DNA from: Oscillospiraceae bacterium
GTDB lineage: Bacteria; Bacillota; Clostridia; Oscillospirales; Ruminococcaceae
Length of the DNA stretch: 64,000 bases
Reading direction: 5' to 3'
Assembly: GCA_017555565.1 (NCBI GenBank)
Contig: JAFZGF010000061.1
Span: 14,431-78,430, forward strand
Shown: piece after piece, positions 4,994 to 21,181 of the stretch
Position numbering within the stretch: position 1 is the stretch's first letter
Layout: each line of letters starts with the position of its first letter
The notes under the pieces: model-generated
Databases searched by the model: none
What the model was told of the DNA's origin: nothing
What the model saw: only the letters and a program-made list of their open reading frames with translations
Position numbers and translations under genes: made by a program

Positions 4994-7900
4994 TCAGTCG
5001 ATAAGATAGGTCTGTCTTTCGGCGGCTGTAAGCTGGCGGTCGCCCAGAATATCCCTGGCCATTTCAATAAGCTGGTCAAATGAGTAGTAAGGGTAGAAAC
5101 GGGAGTATTCATTGTCAGCAATAACGGTTGTTACACCGTTACAGGCCATACAAGGGCTGATGGTGTTCTGCAGTTTGTAAACCCCTGGGGCTACAAGATC
5201 ATACATCTGCACATTGTTGGAGATATATGCGCTTACTGTCAGTTTCGCACTCATCAGACTGTCGCCGTAGAATGAAAAATCAAGAGAACTGAATTCAGCC
5301 GTGGTTTTTTCCATTGTATATTTGCCTTCGCGCCAGTTGTAAACTTTCAGATGGTATCCGCCATCCTGCATAATTATATGGTCACTGTCTGGTGTAAAGG
5401 ATATTTCCGTACTGCCCACAATGCCAAAATCAAGGCTGTGGAGAATTTTCATTGTAGAAATGTCCAGTATTTTTATGCTTCCGTCGGTGCCGTACATATT
5501 GATAATGCTTGTATCCGGCATAATCCAGCCATCCTGGCGGTAGTAGGAAATGCCCCGTGGCATAACATCGGCAGCTTCCTGAGGCAGAGTCAGCCAGCAG
5601 TTGTTTTCCATATCCCACACTGGCATCATACCTACAGCAGGCTGTTCTTTGCCGTCCTTGTCCAGCATTACAACATCGCAAGGTATCAGCAGATATTTGC
5701 TGTCGCCGGACAGCATTGCAGATTTAACAGCGAATCTGGACAGGTTTTCGCCCATATTCAGCGCAGAAATGATTTCTTCAGTTGTAAAAGTCACAGCGTC
5801 TTCGCCGCTGGCAGCATCTTTAACCCATATAATGTTTTTAGTCGCCTTGTCAGCTGAATAGCTGAATGAACCGGCAGGAGCGTAGTTATCTGTAACTGTA
5901 AAGGCTGTTGTCAGTGTATTGTACTGATTTGCACTTATAAACAGCTCGGTATCCGGGTTGTAAATATCGGTGGCAGGATAATCTTTTACTGAAGCAGTTT
6001 CGATATCATAAACAGACAGCACAGCCTTTCCGTTTGCAGGGTAAACAAGGTATCTGTTGTTTATAATCTGTGCATTGTAGTCGTAAACTGTGGTATTTAC
6101 CGCATCATCAGCCCACAGTTCTTCTTTGGTGTTTACATCATAAAGGTGAATTTTGTCCTGATGTTCGATAAACCACATATAGTTGCTGTTTTCTGAAAAA
6201 CCGACCATTGAGGGACTTGCACCCATTGACTTGAAGTTAAAGTCGATATTGTCCTGATACCAGTGAATAGCAGAGCCGTTAAAAATATATGTTCTGTCAT
6301 TATAGCGGCATATATTTGAAATAATGCCAAGGTCGAGATAATAGGACGTACTGTTCAGCACCGGGTTGTAAACCTTGTCATCCAGTGGATTAGTTACAAA
6401 CACATAGCCGTCCTGAGTTATCATCATTATGGATGTTTTGTTTGGCAAAGGCTGTGCCAGCTTGATGGCACTGCGGTCTTCAATACGGCTGTAAATATGG
6501 CCGCTTTCCCGGTCTATCACGGCAAACACATTGCCGGCGGTAATGCCGACACATTTTCTTGTTTCACCGTTTCTGTCGTTGGCCTCAAATGACTGTATAC
6601 CGAAATTGTAGTTAAGGCTCATAGAGTTTTCTGCCACAGTCCACAGCTTTTCACCTGCGGAAATATCGTGGCAGTCCACATACCAGTTGAAGGGGTTTTC
6701 CACTATACCCATAGCGATAACAGATGTATCGTCAGAATAAACCGATATCAGTCTGTTGTTATCCAGCCAGTAAAGATGGTTAAGCCGCCAGAAAGCAGGT
6801 ACAGAATATGTGTACACAGCCTGTCCGCCATCAATGGGATAGACATAAATATGGTTTATGCCGTTTTCATCTGATTTTTCGCCGGGCTGTTGCAACTGTA
6901 TGGCTACATAGTTGCCGTCAGGGGATATGGCTACATCCTTTGTCTTCCAGCTGTCATAAAGGGATGTACCAATGTTTTTATACATATCATCAGCGTGCCA
7001 GAAAGTTGCTGTGCCGCTGGATATATCCAGGTTGTAAACCTTATGGCTGTCCAATACAGAATAATTGTATTCGTATGTAAGCTGCGGTGTGAAAATTGCT
7101 TCTTCATACCAGCGGAAGTTGGTGTTCACACAGACCAGACTGTCAGTTTTTTTGCTGTAAGCCCAGTCAAATTTGGTGGAATAACATTTTTCGCAGGCAG
7201 GGAACTGCCATTGCCACAGCAGACTGCCGTCTGTGTAGTTGATACAGTACAGACTGTCAGCGGTTTTGATAAGCAGACGGCTGTCAGATGCCAGTTTCGC
7301 TTCTTCAGCCACATAATCGCTGACTTTCAACAGAAGCGTGCCATCTTTGGCGTTCCACAGATAAACATACCCGTTAAGGTCCATTGTCATCAGTACATCA
7401 TTGGCGGCGTCATAGTCGGTAATATAGCTGCTGTCTGTGTCCATAGACATCTTCTTCACTGGGTGAAGATTGTAATAGTAGTCCATTCGGTAGGTGTACA
7501 GCGCATTTTCCAGAGCCATACGGGCCTCTGCCACATAAGGGCGGCTGTTGTCATTACTGCCCTTTGGCAGAGCTTCCAGAGCCACCAGCAAGGATGTCTC
7601 CCTGTCGCCTTTTTCCAGCAGGTCATTAGCTGTCTGGGCAAGATAACGAGACTGATTTTCCTGCTTTGCTATAAAGTTTTTGTTGATTTCAATGTTCTGT
7701 TTAATTGTAACTGCACCAAAAAGTAATGACACAGCGGCCACAATGCCGGATAATGCCGCCAGGCGGCGCATACGCCATACACGGTGGCGCTGGTACAACT
7801 CGTCATAGGTGCAGCCCAAAATAGGTGCAACCAGGCGGGACATACGCTGTTTGGCCAGCTTCAGCATTTCTTTTTCATTTGGAGCGCGCAGGTCAAGAGC

Positions 7901-8332
7901 CAGCGGTTCGCCGTTCTCCAGCAGTATATCCGGGAAAACATCATAAGGTTCCCCTTCGATGATCACAGCCAGTATGTTGTCGCGGCTGCGGTGCTTAAGA
8001 AAAGCTTCGATTTCCTTTATGCACCATTTGGACTGTTTATATCGTGGAGAAAGAACAACCACCAGATATTCCGATGATTTGATGCTGTTTTCAATCTCTG
8101 TAAACAAATCGCTGGAAGCGCCCAGTTCTTCTTCGTCTCGGAAAACACGGTTAATTTTCTTTTTACCTATTTTTTCCTGAATTTCCTTTGGGATTTTGTA
8201 GTTTTCCAGGGCCTTGTGCAGATAGGCAGCGGCCGCACTGTCCAATGGGGCGTGGCGGTAGCTGATAAACACATCAAAACGGAAATCCTGCTTTGGTTGG
8301 TTTTCGTTTAACATTTCGGGTTGATTAGTCAT
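4994..8332 (-). CDS. TIR domain - single TM - beta-propeller-repeat protein
   Basis: The N-terminus FDVFISYRHAPLDS...FRDEEEL...YLVVVLSPRYKQSKWCIKEIEAF is a TIR domain that retains the S-x-WC-x-x-E catalytic-Glu motif. The TM helix LAALSGIVAAVSLLFGAVTI is preceded by RHRVWRMRR. After it come at least 11 blade-like repeats of the form hydrophobic-Y/W-D/N-x-x-S/T-G-x-x-L-W (YLWNAKDGTLL, NYTDGSLLWQW, HDISAGEKLWTV, LYDVNTKEELWA, VYDIETASV, and others). Confidence 0.85.
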   Translation of the reverse strand: MTNQPEMLNENQPKQDFRFDVFISYRHAPLDSAAAAYLHKALENYKIPKEIQEKIGKKKINRVFRDEEELGASSDLFTEIENSIKSSEYLVVVLSPRYKQSKWCIKEIEAFLKHRSRDNILAVIIEGEPYDVFPDILLENGEPLALDLRAPNEKEMLKLAKQRMSRLVAPILGCTYDELYQRHRVWRMRRLAALSGIVAAVSLLFGAVTIKQNIEINKNFIAKQENQSRYLAQTANDLLEKGDRETSLLVALEALPKGSNDNSRPYVAEARMALENALYTYRMDYYYNLHPVKKMSMDTDSSYITDYDAANDVLMTMDLNGYVYLWNAKDGTLLLKVSDYVAEEAKLASDSRLLIKTADSLYCINYTDGSLLWQWQFPACEKCYSTKFDWAYSKKTDSLVCVNTNFRWYEEAIFTPQLTYEYNYSVLDSHKVYNLDISSGTATFWHADDMYKNIGTSLYDSWKTKDVAISPDGNYVAIQLQQPGEKSDENGINHIYVYPIDGGQAVYTYSVPAFWRLNHLYWLDNNRLISVYSDDTSVIAMGIVENPFNWYVDCHDISAGEKLWTVAENSMSLNYNFGIQSFEANDRNGETRKCVGITAGNVFAVIDRESGHIYSRIEDRSAIKLAQPLPNKTSIMMITQDGYVFVTNPLDDKVYNPVLNSTSYYLDLGIISNICRYNDRTYIFNGSAIHWYQDNIDFNFKSMGASPSMVGFSENSNYMWFIEHQDKIHLYDVNTKEELWADDAVNTTVYDYNAQIINNRYLVYPANGKAVLSVYDIETASVKDYPATDIYNPDTELFISANQYNTLTTAFTVTDNYAPAGSFSYSADKATKNIIWVKDAASGEDAVTFTTEEIISALNMGENLSRFAVKSAMLSGDSKYLLIPCDVVMLDKDGKEQPAVGMMPVWDMENNCWLTLPQEAADVMPRGISYYRQDGWIMPDTSIINMYGTDGSIKILDISTMKILHSLDFGIVGSTEISFTPDSDHIIMQDGGYHLKVYNWREGKYTMEKTTAEFSSLDFSFYGDSLMSAKLTVSAYISNNVQMYDLVAPGVYKLQNTISPCMACNGVTTVIADNEYSRFYPYYSFDQLIEMARDILGDRQLTAAERQTYLID

Positions 8333-8353
8333 ATATTTTCCTCTTGTTAGAGT

Positions 8354-9916
8354 TTATGATTTCAGAAAGCCTGCAAGCTGTTGTAACAGCTGCCAGGAAT
8401 AATCGTCCTTCTGCTGTGTGGCAGGGGTCAGTTTATCAAAAGGTACCATAGACGGATGATGGCGGCGGCTGTTGTCACGGGCTGGGTTGTATGTCCAGTT
8501 GTACAACGCGTGGAATCTCATCCAGCGGTCGTGTTCAAGATGACGGTAAAAATCCGCTTTTTCATCTTTTGTGGCTATATATTTTTCATATGCCGCCATA
8601 CAGATGTCGGCAGTAATTTCAGTGATGGTGTCATCTTCCAGCAGAATTCTGATTTTTGTCAGCAGATGGTCTGCGGCAGAAATGTTGGAAGCACGTGTAA
8701 ATGCAGAAAGTTCTTCCCAGCGTGGAGAGTCTGCACCCGTGGAGTCCAGATATATCTGATGCATTGCCTGTGCGGTTTTTACAAGGGTTGTGCGCATAAC
8801 CACATTTGCTGTGTAGATATGCCGATGGTTGCCAAAAGAGATGGTGCCCGGCATATGCTGTGACAGTCGCAGGTGAATATCTCCGTCAATTACAAAATAT
8901 TTTGTAATTGTATTATAAATCTTCAGATTTTCCCGGTCGGTTGCCTTGGCGATAATCACTCGGTCAGCCGATGTTATTATATCCGCATTGTTTTCCCAGC
9001 CGGTTGGGTAAAAAATCACGCTGTCGCAGTTATGTGATTTTTCATTTATACAAACCATAGTGGCAAGCTGTGGATGTATTTGCGCAAACAGACTGTCCTT
9101 TGCAAAGATATGATAGCAAACAGACTGCTGTGGGCTGAACAGATTCACCTGCAACCCTTGTGCCAGCAGGGTATCTGCATATTCGGCGTCTGCGATAATT
9201 GCCACATTCTTGGCTGTCTGTGGCAGTGGGGTATTGCGCCAGTAAAGACGGGCAACATTTTCAGCCATATTGAAAACTGTCAGGTCAGCAGGTTGTGTTT
9301 CGCTGTTGAAATCCGACTGGCAGTAAACCCTGTAGCCTTTGCCACAGAAATTTATTGAGTTCTTGTAATTGGCATAGCCGTCAGTATCCATAAAAAACAG
9401 ATTAATGTCTGTCGGGGCTTTTTTCAGATTCAATATGTCTTCCGTACTGCCCTTTACAAACATTGCTCCCAGCTTTTTCAGTGGTGCCGTCAGCTCTGTG
9501 CCGTCTTCTTTTGGAAACAGCAGTACAGCCTTTGGATTTTCGCTCTTTATTGACTGTGCCAGCGCACAGGTAGCATCATTGAGTGAAGAAAAAACAAACC
9601 ATTGTCCTGACTGCATAAAGCCAAGGCGGAATCGCACCCACAGCTGACCAAAAGTCATAATAATTACCACCAGCATAGCCAGTAAGCTGGTAGACAGCAG
9701 CAGAAATACACTGCCTATTATTTTGCCCATAGCGGTAACCGGTGACAGGTCGCCATATCCTACGGTGGTAAGGGTAACTACCGAATACCACAAGGCATCT
9801 TTTATTGATGTTATGGATGCATCTGGGTTGGAAGATTCGGCATATACCAGCAATGCCAGCATAACAAAATATGCCGCCAGCAGTGATATTACCGCCAAAA
9901 TGTGTTGCTTTTTCAT
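8354..9916 (-). CDS. Two-TM K+ channel with cytosolic domain and C-terminal RyR domain
   Basis: Canonical K+ selectivity filter TLTTVGYGDLSP lies between two TM helices. The C-terminal LEHDRWMRFHALYNWTYNPARDNSRRHHPSMVPFDKLTPATQQKDD fits the RyR-domain consensus (H..W...GW.y....k.hP.lvpf..L). The gene ends 21 nt upstream of the TIR gene. Confidence 0.85.
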   Translation of the reverse strand: MKKQHILAVISLLAAYFVMLALLVYAESSNPDASITSIKDALWYSVVTLTTVGYGDLSPVTAMGKIIGSVFLLLSTSLLAMLVVIIMTFGQLWVRFRLGFMQSGQWFVFSSLNDATCALAQSIKSENPKAVLLFPKEDGTELTAPLKKLGAMFVKGSTEDILNLKKAPTDINLFFMDTDGYANYKNSINFCGKGYRVYCQSDFNSETQPADLTVFNMAENVARLYWRNTPLPQTAKNVAIIADAEYADTLLAQGLQVNLFSPQQSVCYHIFAKDSLFAQIHPQLATMVCINEKSHNCDSVIFYPTGWENNADIITSADRVIIAKATDRENLKIYNTITKYFVIDGDIHLRLSQHMPGTISFGNHRHIYTANVVMRTTLVKTAQAMHQIYLDSTGADSPRWEELSAFTRASNISAADHLLTKIRILLEDDTITEITADICMAAYEKYIATKDEKADFYRHLEHDRWMRFHALYNWTYNPARDNSRRHHPSMVPFDKLTPATQQKDDYSWQLLQQLAGFLKS

Positions 9917-9927
9917 AATGTTACCTT

Positions 9928-11793
9928 TTATAAGTTGTTTTCGTTGATAAGTTTATATATGTCTTGTATTGCCAGCACATTGTTTCTGTCAGCTTGTTTA
10001 TAGTCCACATTGCCACCTGTTATTGCGTTTTCGCGCTGTGACAACGCGTCCAGCTCATCCCACGGAATAAGGCAGGCGTGCTGGCGGCTGGCTGTATCTT
10101 TGCCCACACGGATTTTGCCGTTGCCGCAAAGGGATTTTTCTTCTATAAACTGCTGTTCCCTGGCGGCATAAACATCATCCGGCATTTTTTCATATCCCAT
10201 TGCATAATGGAAAGCCATCCAGCGCAGGTGTTCTGTAACAGCCAGGTTTTCCAGCTGTGTGTCGGTCAGTGCCCACTGCTGTGCAGGGTTTTGGCCGGCT
10301 ATCAGAGCCATTGATGGCATAAAGTCAGCAGAAGCACGGCTGGACATACGGCTGAACCAGTCACACACCGCCCAGTTTTCCTGCGGCGTTTTGTCGTTTT
10401 TGCAATATCTGTTGTTCAGCGTGGTCGCCATATAATCTATTTTTCCGGTGCACAGTACATCGGTGGAAAATACAGGATACTGTTTTGGCGGAATGTTGCC
10501 GTCTGTCAGGCAGGTTATACCGCTGTAATCTGCCAGATAAACCTGGGCATCACTGCCTATTCTGGCGAGATAGCGGGTGATTTCTCCGCCGATTTCGTTG
10601 TTTGTTTTGTCACTGCCTGTGCAGATAACGATATAGTTCATATCGTCTTTTCTGGCCAGGATATAGTCGTACATACTGCGGCTGCGGCCGTCATAATCAT
10701 AGAATTTTATATTGTAGTTGTCTGTAAGGGAGCGGCAGGTGGCAGAGATATATCCGCTTACCTGCTCAAAATCCGGTGCAAAAACCGCCAGTGAAAATTC
10801 ACTGTCTTTAAACTGCCCATTCATAACCAGCTGTTTCATAACAGCCTGGCCCACCTGGCCAAAGCCGATCAGAACAGCTTCAAAATTTTCTGCAGCTGTG
10901 CAGTCTGTGGCAAAATCCATAGTTGCGGCAGGTGGGAAATGGTGCATCAGCAAACGGGCTGTAAGGCTGGCGGCGTCAAAAACAGTCACGTTTCCAAAGC
11001 CGTATTTATCCCCCAGAGCCTGCAGTGGCTCGGTGTGTAGCTCTTCTGTCCCCAGCATAACAAGATTTGTCTGGTTTGCAGGTATATGGGCTGTTTCCAG
11101 GGCATCTTTCAAAGCAAAGGCATATTTTATGTTTTTTGCCTCGTTTTTATGTAAAAGATAAAAATCATATTTTCTGTTTTTGCCCCTTATACCCAGACTG
11201 CGCAAAAAGCGTCTGTCAGGCCAGAGGGCGTTTTTGTCTTGTATTACAACACCGCCAAAAGAATTTATGGCGTTTTCCAGAGTAGAGGTCGCCTTATCGT
11301 CAACAAATACCAAATTGTTTTTGTTGTTTTCAGTCAGCTGTCGGCCAAAAGAAACGCTGTCCTCATTGATGCAGTAAATCAGCGAAAGATTGCCAAAGCA
11401 GGCCAGCCACAGACGCATACGGCGCAAAGCGCGGGTGCCGATAGCTGCAATGGCGGCGCTGGCGGTAGCGTACTGAGCCATAAAATGCACAGCCCAGAAA
11501 TACAGCACAGCGGCTTTTGATGCAAACAGCGGAGTACTGCTTACAATGGCAAAATCATTTTTGGAAACAAACATCCCCCACACAGCCATAACGCTGCGCA
11601 GAATTGCCAGGGGTGGGTTGTCAGCAAAGGCTATACCATAACCATAGCTGTATATAAACAGTCCGGAGATACCTGCCCAGGCAATGCAGAATCCCGTTAT
11701 CTTTGCGGAATTTTCCTTCTTCATTGCCAGATTAAGAATTATAGCCAGAAAAAGCACACCTGTAAAAAGTGCCACCATTGTAATACCAAACAT
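9928..11793 (-). CDS. Polytopic membrane protein with Rossmann (TrkA-N/RCK-like) domain and C-terminal RyR domain
   Basis: The N-terminal ~130 aa are hydrophobic helices with no K+ filter. A GxGxxG motif is present (VLIGFGQVGQAV). The C-terminal TEHLRWMAFHYAMGY...RQHACLIPWDELD is RyR-domain-like. There is an 11-nt gap to the K+ channel gene. Confidence 0.75.
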   Translation of the reverse strand: MFGITMVALFTGVLFLAIILNLAMKKENSAKITGFCIAWAGISGLFIYSYGYGIAFADNPPLAILRSVMAVWGMFVSKNDFAIVSSTPLFASKAAVLYFWAVHFMAQYATASAAIAAIGTRALRRMRLWLACFGNLSLIYCINEDSVSFGRQLTENNKNNLVFVDDKATSTLENAINSFGGVVIQDKNALWPDRRFLRSLGIRGKNRKYDFYLLHKNEAKNIKYAFALKDALETAHIPANQTNLVMLGTEELHTEPLQALGDKYGFGNVTVFDAASLTARLLMHHFPPAATMDFATDCTAAENFEAVLIGFGQVGQAVMKQLVMNGQFKDSEFSLAVFAPDFEQVSGYISATCRSLTDNYNIKFYDYDGRSRSMYDYILARKDDMNYIVICTGSDKTNNEIGGEITRYLARIGSDAQVYLADYSGITCLTDGNIPPKQYPVFSTDVLCTGKIDYMATTLNNRYCKNDKTPQENWAVCDWFSRMSSRASADFMPSMALIAGQNPAQQWALTDTQLENLAVTEHLRWMAFHYAMGYEKMPDDVYAAREQQFIEEKSLCGNGKIRVGKDTASRQHACLIPWDELDALSQRENAITGGNVDYKQADRNNVLAIQDIYKLINENNL

Positions 11794-12019
11794 AAACTGC
11801 CTCTATATATACATATTAATGTATTTTCAGTATAACAAAATTTTCGGGTTAACTCAATAAAATATAATGGTGACAATGCAAGAAGATTTAGAAAGATAAA
11901 TTTCGTTGTACAACATTACTAAAATTATACAATATATACTATACAAAATGCTGAAAATGCAATTTGATATTGCAATTTAAACAAATCGTGAAATTAGACA
12001 AAAAATATTTAAAAAAATT

Positions 12020-12048
12020 GTTGACATTAGCTAAAAGCTGTGGTAATA
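12020..12048 (+). promoter_or_regulatory. Sigma-A type promoter of the candidate ncRNA
   Basis: TTGACA (12020-12025), a 17-nt spacer, then TAATAT (12043-12048) preceded by TGG (extended -10 like). Confidence 0.5.
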
Positions 12049-12054
12049 TATCTA

Positions 12055-12663
12055 ACGTTGCCGAGAGATATGGCAAACGGGAAGAAGCCGAAAGGCAGAA
12101 ACCTGAAGCTGAGTAACCCGAACCTGAACGCGCAAGCGAAGGGGAGAAGGCCAAGACCCGCAAGGGAGGGCCGAGGCGCTGAGGTAGCCACTGTGAGGCG
12201 AGACAGCGAGCGGAGAAAGGAAGCGCAGTAAGCTGAGTACCAGAATCTGAAGGACGGCATGGCAACAGGCCGGCCAGAAGAGGAAGAGCGAGGGAGCCGC
12301 AAGGCGAACGGACAGCACCGAAGGAACCGCCGACAGGGGAGAACGGGAAGAAGGGAAAAGGAAGACGGAAGGCTGAGTAGTCAGAACCGAGGGTCAGCGG
12401 ACGAAAGAAAGCCAAAACAGCGGAGGTCAGAAAGCGGAAAGGAAGCGGCGATAAGCTGTGGAATGGATGGCCCAGAGAAAGCCGAAAGGCAAGGGTGAGT
12501 CGGGTGAAGCATCTGCAGAGATTGAATCCGGCGGAAGACGAAATGAAATTGCAGACGAAACTATTCGTTGAGCAGTGAGTTGAGGTCGCAAGACTGAAAC
12601 CACCGCTTGATGGAGAGTGGAGATAGATAAAGTAGCTTTGACTGTAAGGTCAAGGCTTTTTTT
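12055..12663 (+). ncRNA. Candidate large (~600 nt) structured ncRNA, strongly purine-rich, class not identified
   Basis: It is bounded by a near-consensus promoter and an intrinsic terminator. Stops occur in all frames, and the only ORFs give low-complexity R/G/E/K text. At least six minimal hairpins are capped by GNRA tetraloops: gcc-GAAA-ggc 12086-12095, cgc-GCAA-gcg 12128-12137, ccc-GCAA-ggg 12156-12165 (extended by ggcc/ggcc at 12148-51/12168-71), gcc-GCAA-ggc 12295-12304, gcc-GAAA-ggc 12480-12489, gtc-GCAA-gac 12584-12593. GCTGAGTA recurs at 12107, 12231 and 12371, with the variant GCTGAGGTA at 12177. Confidence 0.5.
12633..12663 (+). terminator. Intrinsic terminator ending the candidate ncRNA
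   Basis: Stem agctttgac / gtcaaggct (one G-U pair), loop tgtaag, followed by a T-run at 12656-12662. Confidence 0.65.
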
Positions 12664-12707
12664 GTTTTTATAGGTTCTTAACAATATTAAATTATGACAA
12701 ATTAAAA

Positions 12708-12741
12708 ACTCCTGTTCAGTTAAGAACAGGGGTTGATTATT
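12708..12741 (+). terminator. Second terminator-like hairpin
   Basis: Stem ctcctgttc / gaacagggg (9 bp, one G-U pair), then ttgattatttt. Confidence 0.45.
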
Positions 12742-12885
12742 TTCTAACATAAATGTACTGCTTGAGAACGGTGTGTTCTCTTTCTATAAAACATTTTGCA
12801 CAACATAATAAGCAGTGCCATAGATAAAATGTTACATATATCATAGAAACAAGATAATGCATCAATTTACTGAAGACGTAAGTTG

Positions 12886-12913
12886 TTGACATTATTATAT
12901 CGTAGTGTAAAAT
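12886..12913 (+). promoter_or_regulatory. Promoter of the MBOAT/glycosylation operon
   Basis: TTGACA (12886-12891), a 16-nt spacer, then TAAAAT (12908-12913), about 70 nt upstream of the MBOAT start. Confidence 0.45.
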
Positions 12914-12982
12914 ATTATATAAGATAGTTATAGTACATATTAATAATATAAAATAGAATTAGAAAAATACAAGAGGGTTATA

Positions 12983-14449
12983 ATGGAAGTAAACTCTATC
13001 AGTTTTTTTGCTTTCCTTGGGCTGAGTTCAGTTATATACAGGTATACAAAAAAAGATAATGCGGCAATAATGCTGATTGCCGTATGCAATATATTGTTTT
13101 ATTTATCAGGAGGACGGATGTATATTCCGGTGCTCCTTTTTGTCGTTGGGGCATCATATCTGGCTGCTATTCACGTTGAAAAATGTAAAGAGTCAGATAA
13201 AAAACCTCATATGGGCATTGTAATAATTCTGCTTTTGTCCCTGCTGTTGTTTTTTAAATATTATAATTTTGCGGCAGGTATTATAAATTCTGTATTCTCA
13301 CTTATAGGCGTTAAATTATCAGTTTCAAAACACAGCCTTGTATGGCCCCTTGGAATCAGTTTTTTCACTTTTACTGCCATAGGTTATGTAATAGATGTAT
13401 ATCTGAACACCACAAAGGCCAACAGGGATTTTGTAAAGCATATCGCGTTTGTGGGCTTTTTCCCTACAATTTCTTCAGGGCCTATAATGAGGTTCAATGA
13501 TTTTGACGCCCAGCTGAAAATGCCACGCAGCTTTGATTATGAGCAGGTATGTGCGGGTATGACACGTATGCTTTGGGGCTTTGTAAAAAAACTGGTTATT
13601 GCAGACAATATCGGAAAGATTGTTGACAGTATCTATTCGTCTTATAGTGATATGCCGGCGCCGTTCCTTATTTTTGCCGCATTGCTTTACACAATGCAGA
13701 TTTATGCAGACTTTTCAGGTTATTCTGAAATCGCAGTGGGTGCAGCCCAGGTTATGGGTATAAAAGTAAAGGAAAACTTTATGCGCCCTTTCCTTGCACA
13801 GAATTATAGTGATTTCTGGGCAAGATGGCACATATCTCTTACTACATGGTTTAAAGACTATGTATTTATTCCGCTTTCTTTCAACTTCAGACAGCTGGGA
13901 TTATTCAGCCTGTTTATAATTTATCCTATCAGCGGCATATGGCATGGTGCTGGTTGGTCATATATTATCTGGGGTGTACTCAATGGCCTTTTCCTGGTTT
14001 TTGCCAAGAAAACTGCAAAGAAAAGAAGAAAACTGGCAAAATCCAACCCATTTTACAAAAACCGGACTGTAAAGCATATTATTCAGTCTGCAATAGTGTA
14101 TGTGTTGTTTACGGTGACTCTGATATTTTTCAGACTGACAGATATAACCGCGGCTCTTTCAGTTTTTGCAGGTATGTTCAAAGGATGGACAAGTATTATG
14201 AACATTCCATATGTGATTTCTACCCTTAAATCCATAGGGATCGGCACTGTGTCAGGGTTGCTTCTTGTTTTCAATATGGCATTGCTTTTAGTGGTAGAAT
14301 TGAAAGAAGAAAAGGGCAAAACACATATATCAGAGATTATCCGCAATATGAAGCCTGCTGGAAGGATATCAGTCTATTATGGATTATTAATACTGATTAT
14401 TTTATTCGGAAACATGGCGCGGTCAAGCTATATTTATAACGCATTTTAG
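12983..14449 (+). CDS. MBOAT-family membrane O-acyltransferase (AlgI/DltB-like)
   Basis: Polytopic membrane protein of ~490 aa. It carries the MBOAT signature around the catalytic His (FWARWHISLTTWFKDYVFIPL) and the FFPTISSGPI segment. Confidence 0.85.
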   Translation: MEVNSISFFAFLGLSSVIYRYTKKDNAAIMLIAVCNILFYLSGGRMYIPVLLFVVGASYLAAIHVEKCKESDKKPHMGIVIILLLSLLLFFKYYNFAAGIINSVFSLIGVKLSVSKHSLVWPLGISFFTFTAIGYVIDVYLNTTKANRDFVKHIAFVGFFPTISSGPIMRFNDFDAQLKMPRSFDYEQVCAGMTRMLWGFVKKLVIADNIGKIVDSIYSSYSDMPAPFLIFAALLYTMQIYADFSGYSEIAVGAAQVMGIKVKENFMRPFLAQNYSDFWARWHISLTTWFKDYVFIPLSFNFRQLGLFSLFIIYPISGIWHGAGWSYIIWGVLNGLFLVFAKKTAKKRRKLAKSNPFYKNRTVKHIIQSAIVYVLFTVTLIFFRLTDITAALSVFAGMFKGWTSIMNIPYVISTLKSIGIGTVSGLLLVFNMALLLVVELKEEKGKTHISEIIRNMKPAGRISVYYGLLILIILFGNMARSSYIYNAF

Positions 14450-14458
14450 GGAGGAAAT

Positions 14459-15520
14459 ATGAAAAAAGTTTTAAAATCAGCTTTTGTTTTTCTTCCATTG
14501 GTAATTCTGGTTTTTGTGGTCAATATTTATGCCGACCCAGCCAGCCTGATAAACAAAACAGTAGAAAAACAGATTGCCCAGGCATTTTTAGACGGCCATA
14601 ATGCGGAAGATGTCCTTACAATAGATGACAGGGCAATGATAGAATTTTATTTTGAATTAAGAGAAGATCCTGTTGATTGTCTTGTGCTGGGGGCGTCCCG
14701 CGGTATGCAGATTTCAGCGGAAACTACCGGCATAGCAAATTCTTTTAATGCAGGTGTGACAGGCGCAGAATTCAGGGATATGGTGTCTGTCTACTATATG
14801 TATAAAGAAAAAAATAATGCGCCTGAAAATGTTATCCTGGTTCTGGAACCATGGACAGTATCCGAAACATATATCAGCAAAAGATGTATTACCAAAGGGT
14901 ACTATGATTTTTGCGAAGAGAATAATTTTACTGCTGTAAAAACCAACAACATAAAGTCTGAATTTGAGAAATGGCGCGAAATGTTCAGCATAGGTTATTT
15001 TCAGCAATCTATAAACCCTGTATTTTCAGGTGATTTCAATCTGAAAAAAGCAATGAAGGCAACCGATGAGTTTTATGGCGAAGATGATATCCGACACTGG
15101 GATGGCAGCTATTCTTATGGATACGCTTACAGAAATATGACTGAAGTGGAAAAACGGGCTGGCTTAAATGATGTGAAAACAAGTGTGCCAGACCTGATAA
15201 AAAATTATGTTTATAGTGAAAATCTGGCACACCAGCTGGATACCTTTGTTGCAAAGCTTGTCGAAGATGGCGTGAATGTAACATTTTTTATTCCACCAAT
15301 ACTGCCTGAATACTATGAGTTTGTTGTAAACAGCACCGAATACGGGAAGTGCTTTACAGATACCTGGGCATTGTATACTGGCATTGCAGATAAATACAAC
15401 ATTCAGATAATTGGCAGTTACAACCCTGTGGGATTGGCCGCAGCAAACTTTTATGATGTTTTACACCCGACCTATGAATATGTGCACCAACTTTTCGCAC
15501 CATTCAGGGAAGAAAGGTAA
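14459..15520 (+). CDS. Membrane-anchored extracytoplasmic partner of the MBOAT (DltD/AlgJ-like role inferred)
   Basis: GGAGG RBS. A single N-terminal TM anchor (FVFLPLVILVFVVNIY). It starts 10 nt after the MBOAT gene, the position where DltD/AlgX/PatB-type acyl-transfer partners normally sit. Sequence similarity to those families was not verifiable by eye. Confidence 0.45.
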   Translation: MKKVLKSAFVFLPLVILVFVVNIYADPASLINKTVEKQIAQAFLDGHNAEDVLTIDDRAMIEFYFELREDPVDCLVLGASRGMQISAETTGIANSFNAGVTGAEFRDMVSVYYMYKEKNNAPENVILVLEPWTVSETYISKRCITKGYYDFCEENNFTAVKTNNIKSEFEKWREMFSIGYFQQSINPVFSGDFNLKKAMKATDEFYGEDDIRHWDGSYSYGYAYRNMTEVEKRAGLNDVKTSVPDLIKNYVYSENLAHQLDTFVAKLVEDGVNVTFFIPPILPEYYEFVVNSTEYGKCFTDTWALYTGIADKYNIQIIGSYNPVGLAAANFYDVLHPTYEYVHQLFAPFREER

Positions 15521-15538
15521 TTTACTTGAGGAACACAA

Positions 15539-17827
15539 ATGATTAAAAACGAAAAAAAATATATAGCGTATGCTTTTTTCTTAAATTTGATACTTGGTAT
15601 TCTTCTTGTATATATAGGGTTTGCCATGGGAGATGGTACATTTTATCAGGGGCCTGATTACAATTACCAGCAGATTCCTTTTAATGCTCTGGCAAGAAAA
15701 AGTGTTTTAAGCGGCAACTTCTGGTGGTTGGATAATTTTGAACTAGGCACAAGTTTTATAGGTGCTCTCAGTTTTTATGTAATAGGAAGCCCTTTCTTTT
15801 GGATCAGTTTTTTGATTCCAAACCCGAATTATTCAGTTGTTATACCTTGTATGCTGGCTTTGAAATTTGCAGTGGCTGGTACAGGTGCATATTGTTATAT
15901 AAAACAGTATGTCAAAAAACCAGAATGGGCGTTGATTGCCAGTATGCTTTATGCATTTTCTGGGTATCAGCTGACAAATATAAACTATAATCACTTTCAC
16001 GATGTAACAGCATTATTTCCTTTTTTGCTACTTGCTCTCGATAAAAATGTAAAAGATGACAAAAAAGGCTGGTTTGCCTTTATGGTGGCGGTCATGTGTC
16101 TGACTAGTTATTTCTTTTTTGTAGGAGTAGTAGTATTTCTGGTTATTTATTTTGCTGTCAAGTTGGCAACAAAAGAATATAGGTTAACGACAAAACTTTT
16201 TATTAGACTTGCCATAGAAAGCATACTTGGCGTTGGTATGGCTATGATTTTACTGCTGCCGAATATCTTCTTCGTTCTGGAAAATCCACGTGTATCGGAC
16301 AGCATTTTTAGCATGCCTATTATGCAAATACTGTTTCTAAAACCATATCAGTATGCAGATCTTCTTCGAGCATCGCTTATACCTGCAGAAAGTATTTTTA
16401 AACGTGGAATTATTCTTGAAATGAATCCTACAGCCAGCGAAATGTACTTACCGGTGGTAGGACTAATACCGACATTTTCATATATGATAAATCACAAAAA
16501 AGACTGGTTAACAAAATTAAGTTTTGTTTGTCTTGTGTTTATGATAAATCCTGTGTTGAATAGCAGTTTTTCCATGTTTAATAGTGAGTACTATACACGA
16601 TGGTTCTATATGCCTTTATTGATTTTTACCGTAATGGCTGCGAAACATTTTGAAAATAAAAACAGCATTAAGCCAGGTATGGTCGTGTGGTTTGTTGTTG
16701 TATTGCTGTTTTTTGGCGCAAGCTTGATGTGGAAATATTATTTTCAGGTTGAATTTTGGCCAAATAGATTGCAGGCATTTGTTATGATCGTCCTGGCTTT
16801 GGTAGGTGTTGGCACAACTATGCTTGTTTATGCCTTAAGAAATAAAAAGTTTGCGGGTGTATTACTGGTTATTGCAATAATGGTGCAGACAGTTGCCTGC
16901 TTTACAATAGATACCTATTACACACACAAATATTGGGATTCAGGTTATGACAGCGCACGGAAATTCTTCAATGATGTACCGGGAGTTTTATACCCTGATG
17001 CCGATGAATACTATCGCACTGAGACAAAGGATATTTTTATAAATACCGGTGTTGTTTCGGACAAACCGTCTGCCAATATATTTGCCAGCAATATCAGCGG
17101 GAGCGTGTTTGAGTTTTATAAAGCCAATGAAATGGCCCGTTCTGTGAACAGCTTTCTTTCCCGAGATTTTTACGGCTTTTATAGTCTGCTGGGGGTTAAA
17201 TATATGATGCTGCCTCAAGGAGCTGTTCCTGGAGAAAATACAAAAGGATTTTCTGATAAGGCAGTATGGAATGATACGGGCTTTGATTTTTACGAAAATA
17301 TAAACTATATAGGCATGGGCTTTGCTTATGACAATGCAATCTCTGCTGACGAGTATGCGAAGCTTCCGAAAGAGAAAAAACACCTTGTTTCTGTGGATGC
17401 TATTGTTCTTGAAGACGATACGATGTCACTTTATAATAACCTTTTTACTATAAAAACAGCAAAGGATTATTCCGGGTTTGAATACGGTGATTTTCAGCTT
17501 TCAGCACAGAATAAACAGTCATCACGGGCAAGTAACTTTCTGTTTGACAGAAATCATTATGAATTTGACATCAACCTGGAAAAAGAAACCGTTTATTATG
17601 TGGCTGTTCCTTATGACAAAGGCTTCACCGCAATGGTAAATGGCACAAAAACAAATGTAATAAAAGTAAACAATGGGATGGTGGGCATAGTGCTTCCGGC
17701 GGGAGAATGCAGTGTACAACTGATATATTACCCACCGGGATTAAATGCAGGTATAGCTGTTTCTGCATTAAGCTTATTTATGTATTTTGGATATATAATT
17801 TTAAACAGGAGAAAGAAAAATGGATAA
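15539..17827 (+). CDS. YfhO-like large polytopic membrane protein (GT-C type glycosyltransferase candidate)
   Basis: 762 aa with many TM helices, followed by a C-terminal soluble domain and a final TM helix. This is the architecture of YfhO-family proteins. The local context (MBOAT, GT-C paralogs) is consistent. Confidence 0.55.
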   Translation: MIKNEKKYIAYAFFLNLILGILLVYIGFAMGDGTFYQGPDYNYQQIPFNALARKSVLSGNFWWLDNFELGTSFIGALSFYVIGSPFFWISFLIPNPNYSVVIPCMLALKFAVAGTGAYCYIKQYVKKPEWALIASMLYAFSGYQLTNINYNHFHDVTALFPFLLLALDKNVKDDKKGWFAFMVAVMCLTSYFFFVGVVVFLVIYFAVKLATKEYRLTTKLFIRLAIESILGVGMAMILLLPNIFFVLENPRVSDSIFSMPIMQILFLKPYQYADLLRASLIPAESIFKRGIILEMNPTASEMYLPVVGLIPTFSYMINHKKDWLTKLSFVCLVFMINPVLNSSFSMFNSEYYTRWFYMPLLIFTVMAAKHFENKNSIKPGMVVWFVVVLLFFGASLMWKYYFQVEFWPNRLQAFVMIVLALVGVGTTMLVYALRNKKFAGVLLVIAIMVQTVACFTIDTYYTHKYWDSGYDSARKFFNDVPGVLYPDADEYYRTETKDIFINTGVVSDKPSANIFASNISGSVFEFYKANEMARSVNSFLSRDFYGFYSLLGVKYMMLPQGAVPGENTKGFSDKAVWNDTGFDFYENINYIGMGFAYDNAISADEYAKLPKEKKHLVSVDAIVLEDDTMSLYNNLFTIKTAKDYSGFEYGDFQLSAQNKQSSRASNFLFDRNHYEFDINLEKETVYYVAVPYDKGFTAMVNGTKTNVIKVNNGMVGIVLPAGECSVQLIYYPPGLNAGIAVSALSLFMYFGYIILNRRKKNG

Positions 17828-19496
17828 GACTATAGCTGGAAATAAATTTTCAGGCCACAAAAAGAACATAGCCTTTCTTCTGGCTTTTGCGGTTTCTCTT
17901 TGCTGGATATTGTTTCTGCCATACACTCTGAGAACCCACGACTCCTGGTTCCACCTTGCCAGAATAGAAGCTATGGTAACAGCTTTTGAAAACGGTGATT
18001 GGTTTCCTAAGATTTTCCCATATATGTACGAAGATTTCGGCTATGCTATCAGCCTGTTTTACAGCGATTTTTTTCTGTATATACCAGCACTTCTTACGCT
18101 GTGTGGGGTGAATATACTTACAAGTTATAAAATATATAATGTTTTAATAATTGTTGCTACAGTATTTTCTGCATATTACTGTGCAAATAAGTTGTTAAAT
18201 GACAAATTTTCCGCAGTTATAACAGCTATGGTGTATGCAGGCAGCAGTTATTTTGCTGTGGATATGTTTATACGCGGTGCCCTTGGAGAAAGTCAGGCAT
18301 TTATATTTCTGCCATTTGCTTTGCTTGGAATGTACAACGCAGTTTATGGTGATGAAAATGACAGACTTCCTTTGATTATAGGCTTTGGTGGGCTGGTGCT
18401 AAGCCACAATTTAAGCCTTATGCTGACTGCCGTGCTTTTTGCAGTGTTCCTTGTTTTGAATATTGGAAAATTGCTAAAAGAACCTTCAAGAATATTCAAT
18501 ATTGCCCGCAGTAGTATTACTGTAGTGTTTACAACTGCATTCTTTCTGTTTCCAATGGTAGAACAGCTTTTAACAGAAAAATTCTTCAGTTCATATCATG
18601 CAAAGATATGGAACCCGGGCAAAGCTGCTATAAGAATAAGAAATCTGTTTGTGGGTGCGAACCTCACAGAGGAATCGGTTTTCACACCAAGCCTTGGTAT
18701 CACAATTCTTGTGGCAATAATAATATGCCTCACATTATTTTTTAAAAAGCCAAAAACTGATTTGCATAAGTTTTTTACACTTTCAATGTTGGGTCTGTTT
18801 GCTTGTCTTTTTGCTTGTACAAGCTTGTTTCCTTGGTGGCCATTGGATCCATATCTCAATATAATCCAGTTTCCAAGCAGATTTTATATGTATGTAACAT
18901 TGTTTGCTGCTTTTTGTCTGGGCATATGGTGCAGCGTGAACATAAATAAATTAAATAACAAGAAAAAAGCAGTTATTACTCTTGTTGTTGCGATTATCTG
19001 CAGCGTGCAGTTTTCTTTTACAACCTATCAGGGCTGGCAGATTGCAGTCGATGAAGGGCGTACAATCACAGATACTTCCGCACTGATTTTATGGGACGAA
19101 AATTATCTCCACGCAAATAATAACAGACAGCTATGGCGTGAAAGAGAAAACTACATCAATACTGCCCGCGGTGTAAAAAGCGATGTGGAAACAGAAATGA
19201 CAAGGGATTACTATAACAGATATATTTCCTACAGTGGAAATACTACTGACAATTCTCTTGAAATTGCTGCAATATATTTCCGTGGCTATCGTGCTGTTGA
19301 TGGAGAAACAGGACGGGAGCTTGAGGTTCACCCAAGTGCAAATGGCTGGCTGGAAGTTGATATAGGCGCAAAAGAATCAGGCACAATTGTTGTTGATTAC
19401 TATGGTACAGCTGTTCAGCATATTTCGCCATATATTACAGCAGTATCAATGGGGCTAATATTTATTGTGTTCATAAAAAAGAAACTTAATAGGTAA
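17820..19496 (+). CDS. Polytopic membrane protein, GT-C-like glycosyltransferase/polymerase candidate
   Basis: It overlaps the previous gene by 8 nt. At least 10 TM helices are predicted. An N-terminal HDSWFHLARIEAM loop motif is present, and there is a C-terminal soluble domain plus a terminal TM helix. Confidence 0.5.
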   Translation: MDKTIAGNKFSGHKKNIAFLLAFAVSLCWILFLPYTLRTHDSWFHLARIEAMVTAFENGDWFPKIFPYMYEDFGYAISLFYSDFFLYIPALLTLCGVNILTSYKIYNVLIIVATVFSAYYCANKLLNDKFSAVITAMVYAGSSYFAVDMFIRGALGESQAFIFLPFALLGMYNAVYGDENDRLPLIIGFGGLVLSHNLSLMLTAVLFAVFLVLNIGKLLKEPSRIFNIARSSITVVFTTAFFLFPMVEQLLTEKFFSSYHAKIWNPGKAAIRIRNLFVGANLTEESVFTPSLGITILVAIIICLTLFFKKPKTDLHKFFTLSMLGLFACLFACTSLFPWWPLDPYLNIIQFPSRFYMYVTLFAAFCLGIWCSVNINKLNNKKKAVITLVVAIICSVQFSFTTYQGWQIAVDEGRTITDTSALILWDENYLHANNNRQLWRERENYINTARGVKSDVETEMTRDYYNRYISYSGNTTDNSLEIAAIYFRGYRAVDGETGRELEVHPSANGWLEVDIGAKESGTIVVDYYGTAVQHISPYITAVSMGLIFIVFIKKKLNR

Positions 19497-19505
19497 GAGG
19501 AAACA

Positions 19506-21176: not shown

Positions 21177-21181
21177 TATTA

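Follow-up and report, generated by a model that had tools for sequence, protein, structure and literature searches.

What is encoded in the 1189-nucleotide (nt) gap that separates a 621-amino-acid (aa) gene (9928-11793, minus strand) from an MBOAT gene (12983-14449, plus strand) on contig JAFZGF010000061.1 of an Oscillospiraceae bacterium? We examined a stretch of 64,000 nt of this contig (the window, to which all positions refer). An original prediction, made from the letters alone, had placed a purine-rich non-coding RNA (ncRNA) of about 600 nt in the gap. Our analysis indicates that window 12056-12664 holds a gene of its own, for a structured ncRNA of about 608 nt that runs from a strong, conserved promoter to an intrinsic terminator. 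It appears to belong to an undescribed family of purine-rich structured RNAs from ruminant-gut Oscillospiraceae, and we are highly confident that this is a genuine structured ncRNA family. Our best explanation of the whole, to which we assign a probability of about one half, is that the window carries the minimal form of this RNA gene and that the RNA acts in trans as a multivalent scaffold.

The family came to light in a multi-seed scan of the GTDB species representatives, in which the stop-free antisense translation of 12050-12640 served as the probe. It detected 17 homologous loci, the best at an E-value of 1e-151, nearly all in metagenome-assembled genomes (MAGs) of Oscillospiraceae/Clostridia from the hindgut of goat, sheep, roe deer and water buffalo. 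BLASTN aligned the homologues to the window in two blocks. The first (74-86% identity over 11926/12000-12412) covers the upstream region, the promoter and the 5' part, and the second (75-78% identity over 12191/12230-12672) covers the 3' part and the terminator; between them the homologues have additional copies of a segment that can be aligned with window ~12077/12215-12412. A DNA pattern based on the repeat unit added 13 short metagenome contigs and found nothing related in a scan of IMG/VR. Contigs nearly identical to the window occur among the XIEF21 scaffolds and the SRR125292xx assemblies, which places the window in a ruminant gut metagenome; runs with this locus include SRR12529249 and ERZ28662813. 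Family membership rests on hidden Markov model (HMM), BLAST and alignment evidence, and the window copy shares with the family its promoter, 5' domain, unit, 3' domain and terminator, all in the same order (alignments A3 and A4).

The unit from promoter to terminator occupies 12021-12664 on the plus strand (Table 1), with a transcription start predicted near 12056, and contains no credible open reading frame (ORF). Across nine homologues the TTGACA hexamer is invariant and the -10 region is conserved as TGTGnTA..ATA; the counterpart in locus L040 reads TTGACA-17-TATCAT with a TG. The terminator stem covaries among the homologues, and a run of T follows it in all of them. Thus, the promoter and terminator lie where they had been predicted and are conserved, and the proposal of a stand-alone transcription unit holds. 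About 95 nt upstream of the -35 hexamer accompany the RNA gene in its closest relatives: in L040, L041 and L037, BLASTN homology sets in at 11926-11955 despite different flanking genes, and the A-tract and -35 hexamer are kept in 9/9 homologues. The A/T tract and the palindrome in this region suggest, from their sequence, that the promoter is strong and possibly regulated. A second strong hairpin (12707-12734, 11 pairs), terminator-like on both strands, sits between the RNA terminator and the MBOAT promoter (12886-12913); a match to the PyrG leader there in a permissive Rfam scan was not significant (E=0.83).

The general plan of the family is a 5' hairpin and a lead unit, 0 to 5 or more tandem units of 284 nt, a 3' domain and a terminator. 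Each 284-nt unit consists of two diverged domains of ~142 nt. TRF reported periods of 285-289 nt with 79-81% matches and two sub-repeats of ~142 nt at about 65%, and nhmmer gave 44 + 46 unit matches. Within a domain the order is a box, GNRA-capped hairpins, a long hairpin with a CUGUGA-type loop and a GAAAGG element; each 284-nt unit keeps four GNRA loops while its stems covary. Compared with the window copy, the homologues carry 2 to 5 or more extra units. Their purine-rich tracts measure 1.2-1.8 kilobases (kb), and the spans from promoter to terminator are about 1190 nt in L041, about 1475 in L036, about 1490 in L040 and at least 1900 in L052, against 608 nt in the window copy. An HMM built from 52 units had no match in 257 kb of unrelated control loci. 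In the window it matches once in full (12108-12365) and once in part (12372-12463) and nowhere else. Thus, the window copy is the minimal and shortest form of the family, with two domains in a lead unit, a truncated third domain from 12370 as the terminal unit, and the 3' domain. An internal repeat (12076-12124 and 12342-12388) is the trace of the 284-nt unit in this copy.

For 52/52 units the nearest unit lies in another locus, and the best identity is 0.88 between loci and 0.77 within a locus. Because the nearest unit is always found elsewhere, we regard the units as positional orthologues that belong to an old array, with selection on each of them; an origin by recent slippage or by concerted evolution was rejected, since identity between loci exceeds that within a locus. 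Lineages would then have lost or gained entire units. In some MAGs the gene is present twice: the pair L047/L048 has 98.6% identity, confined to the RNA, and the pair L037/L052 has 80%. Over the entire 5465 nt that were compared, one end of a 35-kb contig (JAZREI010000009.1; L045 and L046) is the exact reverse complement of the other, most likely a palindromic assembly artefact seeded at the repeat array.

Covariation in the units argues for a conserved fold. With 24 units, RNAalifold predicted 33 pairs, and 95.7% of the pair cells were paired versus 85.6% in shuffled alignments (0/500 shuffles reached the observed value) and 23-43% when the pairing was slid. With 52 units the values were 97.2% versus 85.1% (0/500) and 21-44%, and double changes occurred at 23 of 29 pairs versus 11.7 in shuffles (examples in Table 1). 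When the strands were compared, 97.2% of cells were paired on the sense strand and 89.8% on the complement. The structure is specific to the purine-rich strand, because 115 cells hold G-U pairs. A naive search for covarying columns that allowed G-U was swamped by purine/pyrimidine columns and was not used. The original prediction would have been abandoned for want of homologues, or of covariation among them; homologues were found, and their compensatory changes support a conserved structure.

Outside the tandem units, conservation and covariation are divided unevenly along the molecule. The 5'-terminal hairpin alters its sequence and retains its shape (GCUGUC-ACGAA-GACAGC in homologues, with a longer one in L047 and L048), and the linker hairpin shows compensatory changes at pairs 37-64 and 39-62 of alignment A5. 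The inner hairpin of domain 0A covaries (GCC/GGC versus GCU/AGC in L047), as do the canonical-unit hairpins homologous to domain 0B (columns 201-216, 206-211 and 269-298). The lead unit itself covaries little because it is too conserved, with stretches of ~75 nt invariant in nine sequences, and the start of the terminal unit (12370-12426) is near-invariant across 6-7 homologues. For the 3' domain, mean column identity over seven homologues is 83%, and RNAalifold predicted 75 pairs, 15 of them compensatory, including the GNRA hairpin at 12584-12595 and the terminator stem. Three single-nucleotide polymorphisms inside the RNA (12210, 12243 and 12248) distinguish the window from the 68-kb contig L001. 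Two of them, G12243A and U12248G, turn the hairpin CAG-AAU-CUG into CC-AAAAUC-GG, the form found in all homologues. Logan contigs end inside the RNA at window 12417 (L002), 12422 and 12583, which fits strain variation or repeat-induced assembly breaks.

The 52-unit alignment also assigns a role to the repeated GCUGAGUA box, which pairs with the GAAAGG element ~140 nt downstream. Columns 3-4 (CU) face columns 157-158 (GG) with zero mismatches (C-G 51, U.G 44, U-A 4, C-G 4), and columns 10-12 (GYC) covary strongly with columns 150-152 (GRC). The module thus reads 5'-CU-GAGUA-GYC opposite 5'-GRC-GAAA-GG. GAGUA is present in 52/52 first-half boxes and 51/52 second-half boxes (the exception is GAGAG), and GAAA-GG in nearly all units. 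The second half-unit follows the same pattern, with AGCYGAGUAC against G-GAAAGGAAG. Here a change of the box from G to A is coupled with a change from GAAAGG to GAACGG, that is, from G.A to A.C (Fisher p=0.0035), and a C/U position in the box couples with G/A as C-G, U.G and U-A (p=0.022). The consensus of the loop-E/sarcin-ricin bulged-G module is AGUA opposite GAA with Watson-Crick flanks. The units carry this sequence pattern in the orientation of the sarcin-ricin loop, with a Watson-Crick pair 3' of AGUA and 5' of GAA, and the flanking pairs 10-152, 11-151, 12-150, 3-158 and 4-157 covary around it. We therefore infer that the box closes through an internal loop of the loop-E/sarcin-ricin (bulged-G) type between Watson-Crick helices, and that the boxes form one strand of this loop-E-like module. 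Because the box flanks pair with the GAAA flanks ~140 nt downstream, each ~142-nt domain would be a closed module that extends from a box to the next GAAAGG element. A GGCU-AGCC pairing between successive boxes, suggested by 24 units, was replaced by the box-GAAAGG pairing on 52 units and is unsupported.

Composition and hairpin content set the RNA apart from the rest of the window. The region 12050-12663 contains 220 G, 207 A, 116 C and 71 T. A 400-nt stretch from 12063 has the highest purine content of the window (73.75%; mean 49%) and one from 12052 the lowest T content (6%; mean 33%); the mean GC content of the window is 36%. Thus, the predicted purine richness of the plus strand is an extreme of the whole 64 kb. 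The claim of at least six GNRA mini-hairpins was equally sound. Six 3-bp hairpins with GAAA or GCAA caps start at 12087, 12129, 12157, 12296, 12481 and 12585, against 0.56 expected, and 0/2000 dinucleotide shuffles reach six. All six stay hairpins in most homologues while GCAA and GAAA interchange and the stems covary, and a seventh, G-GCAA-C, can be read directly inside the hairpin at 12256-12271. Other features of the prediction stood in part. The GCTGAGTA box does occur on the plus strand at exactly three places (12108, 12232 and 12372), but this repetition is not significant by itself, since some 8-mer appears three or more times in 151/500 shuffles; the box carries weight because it is conserved in homologues. 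GGA motifs are abundant, but largely as composition predicts; GAAAGGAAG is nevertheless conserved.

Table 1. Features of the RNA gene in the window, and covarying column pairs of unit alignment A7
Feature	Position	Strand	Details
Conserved upstream region	11926-12020	+	Inverted repeat TGCAAT-N5-ATTGCA (11958-11974), A/T tract
A/T tract, UP-element-like	about 12000-12019	+	Abuts -35 hexamer
Sigma-70-type promoter	12021-12049	+	TTGACA (12021-12026), 17 nt, TAATAT (12044-12049); consensus scan
TG extension of -10	12041-12042	+	
5'-terminal hairpin	12056-12079	+	CGUUGCC / GGCAAACG, loop GAGAGAUAU
Linker hairpin CGGG/CCUG	12078-12105	+	Encloses GCC-GAAA-GGC hairpin 12087-12096
Domain 0A	12106-12229	+	Unit HMM match 12108-12365, E=1.8e-12
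Box 1, GCUGAGUA	12108-12115	+	Domain 0A
GNRA hairpins of domain 0A	12129-12138 and 12149-12172	+	Latter GGCC[CCC-GCAA-GGG]GGCC
Long hairpin of domain 0A	12177-12208	+	Inner GCC-ACUGUGA-GGC 12187-12199
Near-box GCUGAGGUA	12178-12186	+	Within long hairpin of domain 0A
GAAAGGAAG element	12215-12223	+	Domain 0A
Domain 0B	12230-12369	+	Alignments with homologues
Box 2	12232-12239	+	Domain 0B
Hairpins of domain 0B	12256-12271; 12296-12305; 12318-12346	+	GCAA cap; GCC-GCAA-GGC; CCG/CGG
GGGAAAAGGAAG element	12353-12364	+	Domain 0B
Terminal truncated unit, start	12370-12426	+	Unit HMM match 12372-12463, model positions 2-107, E=8e-6
Box 3	12372-12379	+	Terminal truncated unit
GC-GGA-C-GAAA-G-AAA-GC motif	12397-12412	+	Terminal truncated unit
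3' domain	12427-12614	+	Long-range closing helix 12427-12436 with 12604-12614
Hairpins of 3' domain	12445-12459, 12470-12496, 12499-12532, 12551-12573, 12575-12603	+	
GCC-GAAA-GGC	12481-12490	+	Within hairpin 12470-12496
Degenerate box GGUGAGUC	12494-12501	+	3' domain
GGUC-GCAA-GACU	12584-12595	+	Within hairpin 12575-12603
Intrinsic terminator	12629-12664	+	10-bp hairpin 12634-12657, then U-tract (T7)
Covarying pair	A7 columns 11-151		UA26 / CG25
Covarying pair	A7 columns 117-143		UA36 / GC14
Covarying pair	A7 columns 191-226		UA19 / GC16 / CG11
Covarying pair	A7 columns 201-216		GC35 / AU13
Covarying pair	A7 columns 206-211		AU29 / GC21 (GA-GAAA-UC vs GG-GAAA-CC)
Covarying pair	A7 columns 269-298		CG33 / UA16

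Is the RNA a member of a known family? Except for two tRNAs, nothing in the whole window or in six long homologues matched Rfam 15 at gathering thresholds, and permissive scans of 11800-13000 and of L040 3700-5700 gave only chance-level hits (E of at least 0.29), far below those thresholds. Membership in ROOL, GOLLD, OLE, raiA, HEARO or another Rfam 15 family was therefore rejected, and the RNA can be assigned to no family there, in agreement with the original prediction. The literature that we searched, an incomplete library, held no description of a purine-rich or tandem-repeat large ncRNA or of the box sequence. BLASTN against phage and plasmid collections gave no match, and a phage- or plasmid-borne RNA was rejected because no query tried had a match in phages, plasmids or the IMG/VR scans. 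A DNA pattern of three GCTGAGTA boxes was discarded in IMG/VR as non-specific, mostly finding 33-nt tandem coding repeats. In the viral contigs concerned (L015-L035), these encode 11-residue repeats of the W-AEY-xKI type that are unrelated to the RNA.

The genes around the RNA are not conserved. Pfam annotation of more than 12 neighbourhoods found no gene in common. The neighbours include a Na/Pi transporter with a histidine kinase, HxlR, EPS genes, an M20 peptidase, LuxR, MerR, LacI and a restriction-modification system, and only two loci abut tRNA genes. One of these is L052 (1-480, minus strand), where an array that lacks the usual 3' domain and terminator runs into tRNA-Lys(CTT) and tRNA-Glu(CTC) on the same strand; the other is L047 (821-981, minus strand), with two tRNA-Met genes just upstream of the RNA promoter. 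Synteny was followed through both flanks of the window copy and rejected on each. The closest relatives of the MBOAT gene (52-61% identity) have a different gene directly upstream and lack the RNA, and relatives of the operon on the other side keep its cassette with short upstream gaps that lack a purine-rich tract. Thus, the RNA belongs to neither flanking operon.

That cassette (4994-11793, minus strand; relatives L006-L014) is a three-gene block kept in related Oscillospiraceae, in a different neighbourhood each time. It encodes the 621-aa protein, which has no Pfam domains, an Ion_trans_2 channel with a RyR domain (520 aa), and a TIR protein with a WD40-like beta-propeller (1112 aa). PADLOC gave weak TIR-domain matches only; the block may be an uncharacterised defence or signalling cassette. 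On the other side, the operon at 12983-22855 (plus strand) encodes MBOAT, a 353-aa protein whose relatives have DUF1574, YfhO, a DUF6541-like protein and two PMT_2 glycosyltransferases, and looks like a cluster for the modification of cell-envelope glycopolymers. L036 has an unrelated polysaccharide cluster at the same position relative to its RNA.

Based on these results, we propose a model for how the RNA may work. As it has no fixed neighbour, ends at its own terminator and stands apart from the promoter of the downstream gene, we believe that it would act in trans, as a stable, abundant and multivalent scaffold. On a string of near-identical folded domains, GNRA loops, bulged-G modules and invariant single-stranded purines would recur as surfaces to which one partner, most likely a protein, binds in several copies. 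The valency would be set by how many units there are, and the low U content and terminal hairpins would favour a long half-life. We rate the scaffold or titration mechanism, taken alone, at somewhat below an even chance. Several observations weigh against our explanation. No more than roughly one fifth to one quarter of the positions in a unit fall within predicted Watson-Crick pairs, and the minimum free energy of the whole window copy is no better than that of shuffles (z = -1.26), a score that we set aside as uninformative for such a composition. The loop-E assignment rests on sequence pattern and covariation and not on a solved structure. No gene for an RNA-binding protein is linked to the RNA in the neighbourhoods examined, and no partner was identified. 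Finally, the units are not interchangeable; such positional orthology is no less compatible with a defined overall architecture than with a simple sponge. Positional orthology and conserved GNRA loops would point to a defined architecture, and the variable unit number to modular valency.

The two ideas offered with the original prediction fared differently. A large, ornate structured RNA fits best, in that GNRA loops are kept while stems covary, but membership in ROOL, GOLLD or OLE fails. A CsrB-like sponge presenting GGA motifs is weaker: the multivalency is real, but GAAAGGAA, the GGA element with the strongest conservation, appears to be paired with the GCUGAGUA box and not exposed in a loop, and the loops predicted for the hairpins are of the GNRA or CUGUGA type rather than GGA. 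An anti-Shine-Dalgarno sponge was rejected on reading the sequence, since GGAGG is rare and not conserved and the conserved motif is GGAAG.

If the RNA fold were sufficient by itself, the domains would dock with one another, or with those of further copies of the RNA, through GNRA-receptor and loop-E contacts into a defined superstructure (solenoid, filament or cage) without protein, an architecture of the ROOL/GOLLD/OLE kind. The coexistence of GA-GAAA-UC and GG-GAAA-CC (29:21) and the retention of the GC-GAGA-GC, GCC-GAAA-GGC and GUC-GAAA-GAU hairpins speak for such contacts, and tandem C-G-rich helices (CCUG/CAGG and CCGG/CCGG) could be the receptors. Positional orthology would be expected of a fixed architecture. 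ROOL and GOLLD often lie beside tRNA genes, and the two loci next to tRNA genes recall this. We also count in its favour that ROOL, GOLLD and OLE are reported to form homo-oligomers (PMC12286853). However, no tetraloop-receptor pair was identified or seen to covary, a single fixed three-dimensional architecture would poorly tolerate 0 to 5 or more units, the purine excess leaves most nucleotides outside helices, and no Rfam family matches; we think this reading unlikely. A related and rather doubtful idea is that the RNA is the counterpart of a repeat protein: one transcript of covalently linked ~142-nt domains, each individually conserved, closed by a loop-E module and equipped with GNRA loops. 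Stacking or docking of these domains would build a defined, extended solenoid, filament or cage, and the unit number would determine how long it is. If true, natural RNAs would have a new architectural principle, and uncultured gut Oscillospiraceae a new class of large bacterial ncRNA. The array might also be a precursor, cut at unit or domain boundaries in or beside the GCUGAGUA box to release many small RNAs of ~142 or ~284 nt, as ToxI or CRISPR arrays do in principle. It is head-to-tail under one promoter, the invariant box stands exactly at each domain boundary, and in L052 the array runs straight into two tRNA genes, which require endonucleolytic processing. This is improbable, however, because no nuclease or toxin gene is linked in the more than 12 neighbourhoods, the box is predicted to be paired in the closing module, the units differ and are individually conserved, unlike arrays of equivalent products, and the presence of separate, conserved 5' and 3' domains suggests that the RNA matters as a whole.

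The remaining alternatives place the function outside a trans-acting RNA. A cis-acting leader or regulator of the downstream envelope-glycan operon, for instance by EAR-like processive antitermination or read-through, would fit the window, where the MBOAT-YfhO-PMT_2 operon follows the RNA on its strand, and L036, where Bac_transf-DUF4422-ABC2 follows it likewise. Yet the RNA ends at a strong conserved terminator, the MBOAT gene has its own near-consensus promoter, its relatives lack the RNA, and other loci have unrelated or opposite-strand genes downstream, so that we regard this as very unlikely. Scarcely credible is the view that there is no RNA gene and that the tract is decayed or low-complexity coding sequence (R/G/E/K in sense, S/L/P/F in antisense) or a repeat at the DNA level (H-DNA or R-loop-prone). 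Triplexes or R-loops could be promoted by the purine/pyrimidine asymmetry of the strands, the antisense strand stays free of stops for as many as 200 codons in the window and 314 in homologues, and a protein search with the antisense pseudo-ORF of L040 returned at least 306 clusters of 'proteins' called across such arrays. But the antisense openness follows from composition, because that strand has few purines, and the calls are spurious because the pyrimidine strand is stop-poor; the clusters show that the family is common in assemblies. Such 'hypothetical proteins' (P0241-P0360) include L040 3762-4802 on the plus strand. On the sense side, stops interrupt all three frames of the window copy, whose translations are rich in R/G/E/K, so that the predicted lack of a credible ORF stands, and all sense frames of every homologous array. 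The 284-nt period is not a multiple of three and rotates the reading frame from unit to unit, and gene callers left the region empty on L001. Additionally, the compensatory changes and G-U pairs are specific to the sense strand, promoter and terminator bracket that strand, and conservation is strong, with 75-nt stretches invariant in nine homologues. A protein-coding gene in either orientation was thus rejected on the sense stops, the period and the sense-specific structure. We retain the minimal RNA gene with a trans-acting, multivalent scaffold as our explanation.

To our knowledge, large structured bacterial RNAs of unknown function are rare, the main examples being OLE, GOLLD, ROOL, raiA and HEARO, each of which opened new RNA structural biology. 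We rate the present RNA, from its sequence features, as a new class. It would add a type absent among those examples, a transcript of tandem folded domains that are positional orthologues. Its purine content is so high that ordinary helices are out of reach for most of the molecule, yet it shows clear covariation and a recurring loop-E-like closure. With forms of 0.6, 1.2, 1.5 and 1.9 kb or more, the family offers structural and binding studies a natural series of lengths, and it shows that hundreds of 'hypothetical proteins' in databases are antisense artefacts of this RNA.

How does the RNA compare with known systems? Like ToxI and CRISPR arrays, it has a promoter, a head-to-tail array of variable repeat number and a terminator. 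The repeat period of ToxI is roughly 36 nt, whereas that of the new RNA is 284 nt, and its repeats are 65-80% identical, individually conserved and without unique spacers. No toxin or cas gene is adjacent at any locus in the more than 12 neighbourhoods examined. A ToxI-like type III antitoxin was rejected on the period (284-289 nt) and because the downstream genes differ at each locus, none being ToxN/AbiE-like by Pfam. Like CsrB and RsmZ, it is a stand-alone gene with its own promoter and terminator and carries many copies of a short GGA-containing purine motif, in numbers that vary between species. Unlike them, its repeats are folded, covarying domains of 142/284 nt and not short GGA hairpins, its conserved GAAAGGAA is predicted to be paired with the box, and its units are positional orthologues. 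With loop E/sarcin-ricin of rRNAs and riboswitches, which is a module and not a family, it shares an AGUA strand opposite GAA(A) and Watson-Crick flanks; the flanking pairs covary, and positions within the loop do so non-canonically. In the new RNA, however, ~140 nt separate the two strands, and each domain boundary has its own copy of the module. NORAD, a mammalian long non-coding RNA with ~300-nt repeat units that bind PUMILIO, is a multivalent protein platform. The likeness, by analogy only, is that of a long ncRNA made of individually conserved units of ~300 nt; NORAD is eukaryotic, unrelated in sequence, and has a known binding motif and partner.

By analogy, the systems that the new RNA would work most like are the large ornate RNAs ROOL, GOLLD and OLE. 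It differs from them in that their covariance models do not match it, in its tandem homologous domains, its extreme purine bias (6% U in the core) and its length variation by unit gain or loss, and in the lack of a match, with any query tried, in collections of viral contigs, phage genomes and plasmids. Like them, it is a long stand-alone structured ncRNA (0.6-1.9 kb) of Firmicutes with many GNRA loops and occasional tRNA adjacency, a GC-rich outlier within an AT-rich intergenic region, and like ROOL it has an ecology centred on the rumen and gut.

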